This document shows positions 2,015-63,705 of a stretch of 64,000 nucleotides of DNA, in pieces (the first letter of the stretch is position 1; each line of letters starts with the position of its first letter). Below the pieces are notes generated by a model. It was not told the DNA's origin. It did no database searches and saw nothing but the letters and a program-made list of their open reading frames with translations. A program made the translations under genes and the position numbers. This stretch comes from Octopus vulgaris (lineage: Eukaryota), in assembly GCA_951406725.2 (NCBI GenBank), contig OX597814.1, forward strand, positions 158,906,001-158,970,000, in the 5' to 3' direction.

Positions 2015-2281
2015 CTTCAACAGTAAGTTTTGCTTTAGAAAATTTATTTCCAATTACACAGGAATATTCAGCTTTATCTTTTAAAGTGACATCGTGTATA
2101 ACAAGCTTCTGTACATACTTGTCTGTGATGATTTCAATTCGCTTACTTGACTTTACCTCCTTTCCTCCCTTCATCCATCTTACCTTTACATTAGGTTTTG
2201 TTAATTCACATGTGAATGAAGTAGTTTCACTTTCTTTCACTTTCGTATTTGCTAATTTTTTGATGAATTCAGGAGGTGCTT
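2015..2281 (-). CDS. Ig I-set exon (EAPPEFIKKLANTKVKESETTSFTCEL...KAKLTVE), divergent from the array
   Basis: 267 nt, aacag| and |gtatga, phase 1-1, open frame. Confidence 0.93.
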
Positions 2282-3660
2282 CTGTTGAACATTAAATAGG
2301 ATTAAAGTTAGCTTAAATATATAACTACTAAAATACGATTGCTCATTCTGAATGAATTTTCACTAAAATTACTAAGAGAGCAACATACCAAAACAATAAA
2401 ATAACTGTCATAGAAACTATGAAAACTTATATTTTTGTAATACAGAATATCATGCATGTACAAAAGAATATAATAAAATTTAAATTGTGAGCATGCTTTA
2501 GGATAAATACAACACAAGATATATAAAAAAATGGAGAAAAAATTGTAAAATTTCATCAAGAAAAGGAAATTATTTTAACAACTTCAAATCAAATTAAATT
2601 TTAAATTATGTCAAATTTCAAACCATATCAAAGTTTTAAAAAACTGTGAGAAAAAGAACATTTGAACAGACCCTTATAATAAATAATTATTAATTACTTC
2701 ATTAGGTTTATGTTTTAATGATCTAAACTCTAAACCAATACAAACATTTAGATATACAGCATGGCCGCAGCCTTCAGGCTAAAACATTTTTAAGGATTTA
2801 AGGATACAAATTTTGAACTATACAATATTTTTTATTATTTGTACACCATTCAGACTGAATTAGAAGTTAGATTTGATATTTTTATATTATGAATCAATAA
2901 CATTTGAATGATACAGAACTTTATTTTGTATTAAACTTCAGCAAAAATGCTCTACTACCTATTCACAAAAAAAAAAAAAATTTAAGTTTCAGGTCTAAGG
3001 GAGATAATTCTTTTCAGAAACTTTATTAAGAGAAAGTTTTAATTAACAAATTAACTATAAAATTTAATTATGATATATTTGAAAATTAAAAAAAAGTATT
3101 GCACTCATCCATTTTTGATAACTTTTTCACACAGTAACAGAAGACATAAAAGAAAAATGAAGAAAGCTCTGATAGAATGGACTAGGCTATAAATGAAGGA
3201 AGTCATTTTCAAACTGTGTATGTCTAGATATGTAAAAGCAATATATATAACATATACTTTGATCTTGTTTTATATATGTCTATTTCTTATAGGATAGCAA
3301 TATTTTTTTTATCATTTGAACTATTTCTTTTAAGTTTATTGCATATAGTCATTACTTTCTCATTAAGCCCTATGGATAACGTATTTGTGCCTTATTTAGT
3401 TTTTAAATTATTATTAAATTAATTTGAATATTGTTCTATCTACTCTTTTTCTTTTTACATTGGCAGAGTAAATAATTCTTCATATCCTGATTCTTTATCA
3501 AAATAAAAATGGAAAATAGTCTGACTTTGAATGAAAAGATCGTTCTGTTTTTCTATTTCATTGATTGCTGAACTACACCATTTTTATTCTATTAATTAGT
3601 ATAAAATTATTCATTTATCATTTATATACTAATGATAATGAATAAGCTATGTGAAAGAGC

Positions 3661-5230
3661 CTCAGTTTTGACCGACACCGAATGGACATGACAAGAAAAG
3701 AAGAATATTGTTAACTGAATGGTACAGCAGATGGAATATGACAGATATTTATAATAAAACATATTCTACTTCTTGAAGTATTGAGCACATAATTGTGTTC
3801 TTAAGTATATCACACAAGAATATATATATATATATATATACAAATATATATATATATATATATATATATATATATATATTTCTTTACTACCCACAAGGGG
3901 CTAAACACAGGGAGGACAAACAAGGACAGACAAAGTCGATTATATCGACCCCAGTGCGTTACTGGTACTTAATTTATCGACCCCGAAAGGATGAAAGGCA
4001 AAGTCGACCTTGGCGGAATTTGAACTCAGAACGTAACAGCAGACGAAATACGGCTACGCATTTCGCCCGGCGTGCTAACGATTCTGCCAGCTCGCCGCCA
4101 TTTTATATATATATATATATATATATATATATATGTGTGTGTGTGTGTGTGTGTGCATATATGTGTGTACTCTGAGTAATATGCCATCTCTTATTTAATA
4201 CTATTTGGCAGAAAAGTTTATTTAGTTATTTTGCCTTTTCTCCTGAGATAGAAATAATTGTTTATTGTTTAGTGGAAAGCATTGTGTGACACTTCAAATT
4301 CATTTAAAATTTAATAAACCTAATTGTATTTATGGAAAAAAACATTTATCCCAGTGTAAAGGATGGACATTTAAATCTAGGTGTTCTTTTGTCAAATCAT
4401 CTTCAGACATATGTTTCAATTTATAATAAAATGAAATAGAGATGTAGTCAAAAATACCTTTGTTCATTAACTTGGATGTGTTTAGCAATATCTAAATATT
4501 TTTTGTCCTGGGAAGGTCCTTCACTAATCAGCAACCACAGATTGTTTATGGTCAAAAGTGGGTGTAAAGGTGCCATTTATTGACTATAAATCTTCAGAAA
4601 TTATATACAGTATAACAAGAATGAAGCCAGATGGCCTTCCAAATGCTAGCTATTTGATCATAAAGTGTAAAACCTTACTATTTTTATAATGTGAGGTAAA
4701 GTAAACAGAATAAAGAATCTAAAAGTACAATATTTTGCCTCTGGCAATATTTGAAACTCTGGCCCCTTCACTAGTAATTCGTTTCTTCATTCACACAAAA
4801 TAAAACATAGTTTATCCTAGACCATTTTCAAATTCTTCAATTCTGCTTGGATTATATGCTTTGAACACTGTTTCTACATATATAATAAAGCTTTTGTAGT
4901 TGTGATGTATGTCTGTAGTGAGGCAAACAGCTTCAATTAGTCTATTTTCCTTTTACACATTTATTCATTAAAATTTTTATTATATGCTTTGAGACAGTTA
5001 TTGTTACTGTTATCAAGGTGGTGAACAAAGTCGGAACATTGGATACAGTGCCCTGTGGTATTTGTTCTGGCTCAGTTTTGACAGACATTGAATGGACATG
5101 ACAAAAAAAGAAGAATATTGTTAACTGAGTAGTGGATAGAATATGACAGATATTTATAATGTAACATGGTCTACGTCTTGAAGTATTGAGTACTTTATTG
5201 TGTTCTTAGGCACATTACACAAGATTATAT
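3661..5230 (+). repeat. Two copies of a ~170-bp direct repeat (3661-3830 and 5071-5230)
   Basis: Both read ctcagttttgac.gaca..gaatggacatgacaa.aaaagaagaatattgttaactga...cttgaagtattgag...cacaaga and end in (TA)n. Confidence 0.85.
3881..4099 (-). mobile_element. tRNA-derived SINE (octopus-type), embedded in (TA)n
   Basis: Minus strand GGCGGCGAGCTGGCAGAATCGTTAGC (A-box-like) ... GAGTTCAAATTCC (B box) ... GACTTTGCCTTTCATCCTTTCGGGGTCGATAAA; related copies at 25395 and 44335. Confidence 0.8.
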
Positions 5231-5400
5231 ATATATATATGCACATATATGTGTATGTACCTAACTGATCTATGATAGCCAACAACAATTCAAAGCTATA
5301 ACCTCTTCTCCAAACGTTTATTTAGAAAAAAAGATATATACATTAATATGATTTGCTCTTGATTCCTCACTGCGAGGAGAGTGGATAACTGTGGCAATTT

Positions 5401-5620
5401 TATCTATCCATCTATCTATCTATCTATCTATCTATCTATCTATCTATCTATCTATCTATCTATCTATCTATCTATCTACCAATCTACCTACCTACCTACC
5501 TACCTACCTACCTACCTACCTACCTACCTACCTCCGTATGTATGTATGTATGCATGTATGTATTTATGTATGTATATATGTATGTATGTATGTATGTATG
5601 TATGTATGTATGTATGTATG
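5401..5620. repeat. Compound microsatellite (TATC)n(TACC)n(TATG)n
   Basis: Direct reading. Confidence 0.97.
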
Positions 5621-5887
5621 CATAAAACTTTCAGCCTTTCAGTAATTTTGTAACTTCTGTGGACTGAATATATATGTATATGTATGTAGGGAGAGAGAGA
5701 AAGAGAGAGTAGGAAATAGAAAGAATGACAGAGATAGAGACTAACAGAGACAGACAGACTAGTTAAAATAAATAGATGCAAATAAAAATTAATTCTAATA
5801 TTCTAGTAGCTATAGTATTTCTTAATCATATAACCATATGAATGGTTGCACTCAAATAAAGATTTTGAAGAAATGTTCAATTCGTAC

Positions 5888-6154
5888 CTTCAACAATTAA
5901 AGTAGCATTAGAAGAGACATGACCAAGGTCACAGATATATTCTCCTTTATCTTCAAAACATACTTCTTCAATTATAAGTTTCTGAATGAATTTCTCTGTG
6001 ATGATTCTAAATCTCTCATTTTTCTTCATATCCCGTCCATTTTTCAGCCAATTCACTTTAATATTTTCTTTAGTTAATTCACATGAGAAAACTGCTGTTT
6101 CCTTTTCAGTAACATTCACATTTGAAAGTGTTTTGGAAAATTCTGCCCCTGATT
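5888..6154 (-). CDS. Ig I-set exon (ESGAEFSKTLSNVNVTEKETAVFSCEL...NATLIVE), divergent from the array
   Basis: 267 nt, aacag| and |gtacga, phase 1-1, open frame. Confidence 0.93.
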
Positions 6155-62416: not shown

Positions 62417-62446
62417 CAACTGTAGATTCAACTTCAGACGGTTTTT
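62417..62446 (-). CDS. 30-nt microexon EKPSEVESTV
   Basis: tttcgttcag|30 nt|gtgagt, phase 1-1. Confidence 0.82.
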
Positions 62447-62812
62447 CTGAACGAAAGTTAATACGAAGTACAATAAGCAGGTTGTTCGATTATCTCATGC
62501 ACAAAACACTTTTGTTCAAATACTTAGTTATGTAGTTATACGCTTATAAATAGTATATCATTATAAATTTCTTACAATGGTAATGCATCTTCTAATTACT
62601 TTTAATTAGCACATGTTTTACTTTTAATATAGATTGTCTTAAAAATCATTAACTAATTTGAGAATCATTCGAAATAATTATCATTCTCTAAATATGCTAT
62701 AAATTTACAAGAAAACTATCAAAATTATTCTTTAGCATCTACGTTGAAATATTCTTTCCATAAAATGTATTTACATTAGTGAGTTCCATATTTTTATAGC
62801 TAATGTGCTTAC

Positions 62813-62842
62813 CTATGCGAGATTCGGTTTCTCTAACAAATT
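62813..62842 (-). CDS. 30-nt microexon (Q/E)FVRETESRI
   Basis: attttgcag|30 nt|gtaagc, phase 1-1. Confidence 0.8.
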   Translation of the reverse strand, partial: NLLEKPNLA

Positions 62843-63199
62843 CTGCAAAATCAAAATCGTTATTCATTAATGATTACTTTCATCATTTCGTGAAAGAAAA
62901 AAAGCTTAAATAGTTTGAATTCAATTAAATTCATCAGAGAATCTAGATTGGCGTATTTGTCAGTATACTTTCATATCAATTTCTTAAGTATAACTTAATT
63001 TGAAAAATGTCCTAAAGTTCAATATTTAGTATAAGAAGGAATACTATAAATCGTATATATCAATTCATACTAAGGCAAATTACACTTCTAGTACGCATAT
63101 CGATAAAAATAATAATCATTAAGAAATGTTTTACTGACTATAATAATTCTAATAATATAGGTGCTCAATTTTCATTGAATCAATTAAGAAAACACTTAC

Positions 63200-63229
63200 G
63201 AACTGTGGCATCGACCTCAGAAGGTTGTT
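63200..63229 (-). CDS. 30-nt microexon EQPSEVDATV
   Basis: catattcag|30 nt|gtaagt, phase 1-1, paralogous to EKPSEVESTV. Confidence 0.8.
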
Positions 63230-63675
63230 CTGAATATGGAATAAAAGGTGACATCAGATTTTGCACCGTGCACAAATAAAATATAGACGGACAGATGCAT
63301 GAATGCATAAAAAAACTTCTCTACACTTTTAAAATTTAACGGTATGTTGTTCGAAACTATACAATACACTTACGTAAAAGGTATATTCGCAATTTTGAAT
63401 ATGTATTGAAGTTTTATGACATATGTTAGATGCGTTTGAAAAGTAGACCAATAATTGGAGAGCACTTACAAAAATTTATTTCATGCTTGAAACAATCGTG
63501 AATATTTTTTAAGGATTTTTAATAATAATGACAAATCGATAATTTACAGGTATATGGAGATTTACATATTTAAAAATTACTTAAAATTTAGAAGTTTGAA
63601 AACAATTCTAGACGAAATCTATAGTATTGTGACTCAAGCGTATTATAGTAATAACGAAAATAGAAGATCGCTCAC

Positions 63676-63705
63676 CTTTAGGACGTTCGTCCTGTGTCAC
63701 AATAT
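63676..63705 (-). CDS. 30-nt microexon (D)IVTQDERPK
   Basis: atttcacag|30 nt|gtgagc, phase 1-1. Confidence 0.78.

Follow-up and report, generated by a model that had tools for sequence, protein, structure and literature searches.

The 64,000-nt stretch of the Octopus vulgaris genome analyzed here (contig OX597814.1, hereinafter C1; positions C1:158906001-158970000, the window) lies within a minus-strand gene of about 670 kb that, judged from its predicted domain order, is obscurin/UNC-89. The window carries 21 intact exons for I-set immunoglobulin (Ig) domains, located by tblastn and splice-site reading and typed by Pfam I-set; each is 267 nt long, bounded by AG..GT and in phase 1-1. Together with ten linker exons and six microexons of 30 nt, 37 of 37 intact exons are symmetric, all of them phase 1-1. 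A first-pass annotation of this DNA had proposed the uniform phase, the 267-nt Ig exons and the ten linkers, all of which we recover; it also took the system for a new titin equivalent, a filing that we correct to obscurin.

The identity of the gene comes from 864 kb read around the window. Downstream, on the same strand and in order, lie four small exons, SH3, RhoGEF, PH, Ig domains, about 16 FN3 domains, Ig-Ig, a kinase, Ig-FN3 and a second kinase, with Pfam matches to SH3, RhoGEF and SOS1_NGEF_PH. This order contains the SH3-RhoGEF(DH)-PH module and the two C-terminal kinases, the second preceded by Ig-FN3, that mark obscurin. The SH3 domain is 55–61% identical to ten vertebrate obscurin SH3 domains and 40–44% identical to four arthropod-type ones. 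Compared by eye with the alignment in supplement 3 of PMC12198301, the kinase fragments resemble Os_OBSCN_A and Os_OBSCN_B (XP_036361934.1), unlike Os_CON and Os_twitchin; in that alignment the Octopus connectin and twitchin kinases stand apart from obscurin. The tandem Ig exons are spliced to the first downstream exon in two contig sets (X5 and X8), and a single open frame runs from a repeat Ig exon through five downstream exons into SH3. As for titin/connectin, the kinases match obscurin and differ from Os_CON, a RhoGEF is present, and the microexon-encoded chain is not PEVK-rich.

A degenerate SH3-like stretch precedes the real SH3 (C1:158902672-158903119, minus), with similar ones in Owenia and ambulacrarian obscurin models. 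Downstream of PH, one exon (C1:158875514-158876575, minus) holds about 20 copies of a 14-residue Pro/Glu/Val/Lys/Ala repeat, which is closer to PEVK than the microexon product is. About 17 FN3 domains, 12 of them in one run, lie between RhoGEF and the second kinase (C1:158650000-158863300, minus); human obscurin A is given 2 FN3 domains in PMC12812942.

Ig exons, linkers and dead copies

The Ig block reads from high to low window coordinates on the minus strand. Its first exon (53491..53757, I-set, 267 nt) pairs one-to-one with an Argonauta domain at 80% identity. There follow 18 intact, near-identical 267-nt repeat Ig exons (9701..49586), with 5' ends at 49586, 47029, 43411, 42068, 39954, 38664, 33691, 32495 and 30028, and then at 27228, 25926, 23153, 21986, 20782, 20060, 15730, 13269 and 9967. 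Repeat Ig exons are 78–97% identical to one another in DNA, with 84–97% given for these 18, and the ratio of nonsynonymous to synonymous differences (pN/pS) of 0.26 among the 18 marks them as genuine exons. Two divergent exons close the block: exon 6154 (5888..6154), 86% identical to its Argonauta counterpart, and exon 2281 (2015..2281). The next exon begins at C1:158903685, 2.3 kb past the window start, and continues in frame to the SH3 exon. A further Ig exon (40902..41057) retains both splice sites and is cut by 100 N at 40926-41025. The linkers flanking this gap (window 40655-41586) are near-identical, so the assembly may be off by one copy here. The rarer AAG acceptor occurs in three exons (window 43412, for exon 43411; C1:158903686; C1:158900375), and the AAG-acceptor exon 158903685 is used in spliced contigs. 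The closest solved structures to the window Ig domains are titin I-band fragments, and a search of the ESM Atlas returned generic I-set clusters only, under 0.9.

A splice-site scan found the ten intact 30-nt linkers (24836..49118, minus strand), which encode Pro/Glu-bearing decamers and mostly stand about 200 nt behind an Ig exon; their 5' ends are at 49118, 46569, 41586, 40684, 39461, 35693, 33241, 30862, 26731 and 24865. With a pN/pS of 0.63 they are the least constrained of the exon types. An internal AG|GT in linker 26702-26731 could divide it into two in-frame 15-nt exons.

Seven Ig copies are broken by stops or frameshifts, near 52302, 44740, 37406, 36147, 34921, 31333 and 11984 (11739..52302, minus). 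All seven have lost the acceptor AG, against none of the 21 intact exons: the dead copies are silenced through acceptor loss. About nine linker copies have also decayed (45474, 44117, 42931, 38204, 36928, 34445, 32003, 15295 and 12811), so that 7 of the 29 Ig copies are dead, as are about 9 of the 19 copies of the linker. Linkers 35664-35693 and 30833-30862 are intact some 200 nt behind dead Ig exons, and several intact Ig exons have dead linkers; the two parts of the duplicated unit therefore decay independently. Elsewhere in the introns, open frames at window 10850-11140, 23200-24150 and 47400-48400, some of them well covered by contigs, resemble remnants of transposases of the mariner/Tc1 kind.

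The microexon array

Upstream of the Ig block, a splice scan combined with a nearest-neighbor search found six 30-nt, phase 1-1 microexons on the minus strand (63705-63676, 63229-63200, 62842-62813, 62446-62417, 60216-60187 and 59898-59869; span 59869..63705). The first-pass annotation had counted seven; the nearest candidates in the window for another are 44, 20 and 72 nt long, with the wrong frame or with stops. With these six ends, on its 3' side, an array of 258 such 30-nt copies, which spans 233 kb and continues upstream of the window. AG..GT is kept in 255 of the 258 recognizable copies, only 3 lacking a splice site, in a search that reaches copies within 6 mismatches. Of the 30-nt candidates that the same scan returns, 244 lie on the sense strand and 1 on the antisense strand. 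Joined in phase 1, the microexons have no stop in 2549 codons, as against 322 and 136 in the other phases, and pN/pS is 0.27–0.43 in six classes that recur in the order A–F. Five 27-nt and four 24-nt exons also lie within the array. Farther upstream are 14 single-exon Ig domains (264–270 nt, all compatible with phase 1-1) and then three N-terminal Ig domains. The whole block, of which the window is the end, thus covers about 350 kb, with 36 Ig exons and about 264 microexons among about 310 candidate exons; by arithmetic (36 x 89 + 264 x 10 + linkers) it could add about 5,900 residues.

The microexon product consists of E 24%, T 16%, V 15% and S 9.7%, with P 4.7% and K 4.4% (PEVK letters 48%), and is not PEVK-like. 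The striking part of the locus is this array, which lies mostly outside the window; symmetric Ig exons are ordinary. Since the copies descend from a few duplicated units and inherit one phase, frame symmetry does not amount to 37 independent events. A second giant Ig gene, on another contig (C2), served as a control and has a phase 1-1 single-Ig exon of 267–291 nt at seven of nine places checked, six of them unambiguous, and one Ig per exon and Ig-exon skipping are described for human OBSCN in PMC11871629. Exon symmetry alone is ordinary.

Spliced contigs across the block

Four contig sets from three studies, classed as RNA by guess, were aligned to window 19400-39399. They were chosen among 17 guessed-RNA sets that contain 7–22% of the query words; no matching set is recorded as RNA. 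The statements below concern the 7 joints listed and 24 of 124 loose ends. The contigs include spliced molecules, since four of the seven joints pass over CT..AC-bounded introns that separate Ig exons. In X5 and X8, from two studies, a repeat-type Ig end is joined directly to exon C1:158903685, the first 20 bases of which are unique within the 864 kb. The join skips at least exons 6154 and 2281, the last 31 nt of which differ from the mapped ends at 11–14 places, and probably exon 9967 as well (3–4 mismatches). Exon skipping, which the first-pass annotation had suggested, is observed for Ig exons and linkers alike. Exon 6154 is likely used in other transcripts, given its 86% identity to the Argonauta counterpart. 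Joins that would indicate skipping of single repeat exons depend on one diagnostic base at most and were not counted: 20060|21720, as a skipping of exon 20782, rests on at most 1 such base, and a neighboring exon fits 21986|26962 equally well. Joint 30027|34669 maps to a dead copy that has no donor, and its donor is unassigned. Low contig depth over linker bins was not used as evidence.

All 4 runs show joins between repeat Ig exons, at variance with one-exon-per-transcript splicing of the Dscam type. This bears on the possibility that the block of Ig exons and microexons merely lies upstream of obscurin, as a gene of its own or as a Dscam-like cluster from which one exon is picked. Nematode and most arthropod obscurins begin with SH3-RhoGEF according to section 5 of PMC12812942, and the Argonauta annotation divides the region into several genes, as a separate gene would lead one to expect. 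We nevertheless regard it as highly improbable: the array is spliced to the next obscurin exon in two studies, its repeat exons are joined to each other, and the first Ig and SH3-DH-PH stand within one Owenia protein.

Six Ig acceptors have an intact linker immediately before them, and at all six the join that is listed starts at the end of an Ig exon. The five linkers of the aligned stretch take part in none of the seven joints, although joints with sides of 18–28 nt were detected; among the joints listed, linkers are seen only skipped, in four runs. The separate control of hinges that had been suggested for them accordingly finds no support. That suggestion was part of a wider proposal, a titin-like passive spring that sets how stiff the muscle is, in which the number of Ig domains, the hinges and the length of the disordered part are each controlled separately. 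The roughly 5,900 residues that the block could add would suit such a spring, as would the observed skipping and the entropic-spring behavior of the disordered interkinase region of C. elegans UNC-89 (10.1101/2020.04.03.023374), a region that is not the counterpart of the octopus block. The gene is obscurin, however, and Octopus has separate connectin and twitchin kinases (alignment in PMC12198301); the microexon product has little P or K, no linker is included at the seven joints, and nothing indicates that the N-terminus is anchored across the sarcomere. We therefore consider the titin-like spring a distinctly unlikely account.

Origin, proposed function and known systems

Among 150 matches to the SH3 exon, 14 of the longer ones were examined for layout and 20 were named. 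The obscurin model of the annelid Owenia (P0198) has a first Ig that matches (51%), followed by a region of disorder, a further two Ig and SH3-DH-PH, and lacks the array. Gene models of Argonauta keep the octopus order: an N-terminal Ig, 14 Ig, decamer repeats and about 21 repeat Ig. In a quick tree of Ig domains (105 rows, 90 columns), most flanking domains pair one-to-one between octopus and Argonauta, and the repeat block forms one clade (support 97) within which 15 of 21 Argonauta domains group together (support 95), which points to turnover of the repeat copies in each lineage. Four proteins (P0008 and P0011-13; 66–69% identity) also group with the repeat Ig clade. The proposed lineage expansion thus holds in part: the block is restricted in this sample, absent from the Owenia model and present in Argonauta, and what expanded is obscurin and not a titin equivalent. 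Homologue searches among proteins of up to 5000 aa returned no Octopus, squid or bivalve obscurin with the block, a weak negative. The sole other mollusc obscurin seen, a gastropod (Elysia) fragment, has one whole Ig before SH3, and the block is not visible in it.

A bivalve protein, Tegillarca P0032 (55%), was rejected as an orthologue; it aligns in order with the second giant gene, an Ig/FN3 gene on C2 (C2:122410001-122470000, minus) that is collinear with it and carries a separate run of Ig duplicates at 122451500-122463400. From the domain layout, the C2 gene is probably twitchin and P0032 a twitchin-like protein.

Among the models examined, annelid, hemichordate, echinoderm and amphioxus have 3–7 Ig before SH3 and nematodes have 0, while long vertebrate-type matches, one of them named as a fish obscurin, have 52 and 59 before RhoGEF; octopus has 39. 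Section 5 of PMC12812942 treats Ig domains before RhoGEF as chordate-type and names no lophotrochozoan. The low counts in these four groups make the long octopus array likely convergent with that of chordates, and its absence from the Owenia model and presence in Argonauta likewise indicate that a vertebrate-like pre-RhoGEF array likely arose twice. A search of the literature, outside subscription journals and bioRxiv supplements, found no description of the structure or layout of a cephalopod obscurin gene.

The octopod block has the appearance of 350 kb inserted into a single phase-1 intron. We propose that the intron after the third Ig acquired a phase 1-1 Ig exon, and that the 36 Ig exons and about 264 microexons now within it then arose by tandem copying of an Ig exon-intron-linker unit and of a pair of 30-nt exons. 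No unit alters the reading frame, which leaves copies free to be gained, to be skipped, or to fall silent when the acceptor is lost, with decay following.

On the reading we favor, and consider rather probable, these same-frame exons form a spacer of variable length between the conserved N-terminal Ig domains and the SH3-RhoGEF-PH and kinase core. Splicing likely changes the length of the protein. If the core behaves as it does in other obscurins, it would be located on thick filaments, with its RhoGEF and kinases serving in signaling; the SH3 of C. elegans UNC-89 reportedly binds paramyosin (PMC4865318). One Ig domain is a stiff rod of about 4 nm, so that each included Ig exon would add stiff rod and the microexons an acidic, probably extensible chain, and splicing would set the reach and compliance of the tether.

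The alternative that we weigh most closely is unregulated slack, in which symmetric exons multiply and die as the frame tolerates, selection keeps only fold and composition, and all muscles have a similar mixture of lengths. The dead copies accord with it, as do the turnover of repeats by lineage and the linkers, which are the least constrained exons and are seen only skipped. Few of the recognizable microexon copies have lost a splice site, though, exon 6154 is conserved yet skipped, and Ig exons of human OBSCN are described as developmentally regulated in PMC11871629. Unregulated slack is possible, but we doubt it.

Several points weigh against the variable spacer. The seven dead Ig copies and about nine dead linkers fit loose constraint on copy number. 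The contigs are RNA only by guess, and their source organisms may differ from the species of the genome; most Ig-Ig joins cannot be assigned to one donor because Ig exon ends are common to several copies over 25–75 nt; and inclusion of exons 6154 and 2281 is suggested by conservation and was not observed. No RNA evidence was obtained for microexon inclusion, there is no sign of tissue-specific regulation, and the proteins compared from Owenia and Argonauta come from gene models that are partial.

Extending the variable spacer further, we suggest only tentatively that octopods made obscurin a second splice-tuned elastic filament, in which about 310 same-frame cassette exons in one ancestral intron would let muscles set the length of a rod by steps of 89 residues and that of a coil by steps of 10, a convergence with the obscurin layout of vertebrates as well as with the logic of the titin I-band. 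The obscurin family and Ig-exon skipping within it are already known. The locus adds a lophotrochozoan example of an obscurin whose Ig array ahead of RhoGEF is long, a layout that a 2026 review assigns to chordates and that was here likely reached by convergence; the block also illustrates clearly, in nature, how exons arise and die when the frame is symmetric. Should inclusion vary among arm, mantle and heart, the block would give a testable molecular handle on the passive mechanics of muscular hydrostats.

Among known systems the octopus gene is closest to obscurin/UNC-89 (Octopus sinensis XP_036361934.1, human OBSCN and C. elegans UNC-89), with which it has in common SH3-RhoGEF-PH, tandem I-set Ig and two C-terminal kinases, the second preceded by Ig-FN3. 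One Ig per exon and Ig-exon skipping are likewise features of human OBSCN as described in PMC12812942 and PMC11871629, and a long Ig array before RhoGEF is also found in chordate-type obscurins. It differs from known obscurins in the approximately 264 microexons and ten linkers inside the pre-RhoGEF part, in having a young block where dead copies stand among nearly identical Ig exons, and in the roughly 17 FN3 domains downstream. Human OBSCN has 121 exons according to PMC11871629, against about 310 candidates in the octopus block alone, and the octopus exon count may rival that of human titin, for which PMC12198301 gives 363. Molluscan twitchin-like proteins (Tegillarca P0032 and the C2 gene) resemble it in Ig subtype (55% identity), in the phase 1-1 single-Ig exons of the C2 gene and, for P0032, in a local triplet of near-identical Ig domains; they differ in standing at a separate locus, in an Ig run that passes into FN3, and in having no SH3-RhoGEF in the part seen. 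Like the titin I-band, the octopus gene combines same-frame Ig exons that can be skipped with an acidic segment of low complexity encoded by small exons, but titin is another gene with a kinase of another clade, whereas the octopus gene has a RhoGEF and a T/V/S/E-rich segment, and no evidence places it at an I-band position.

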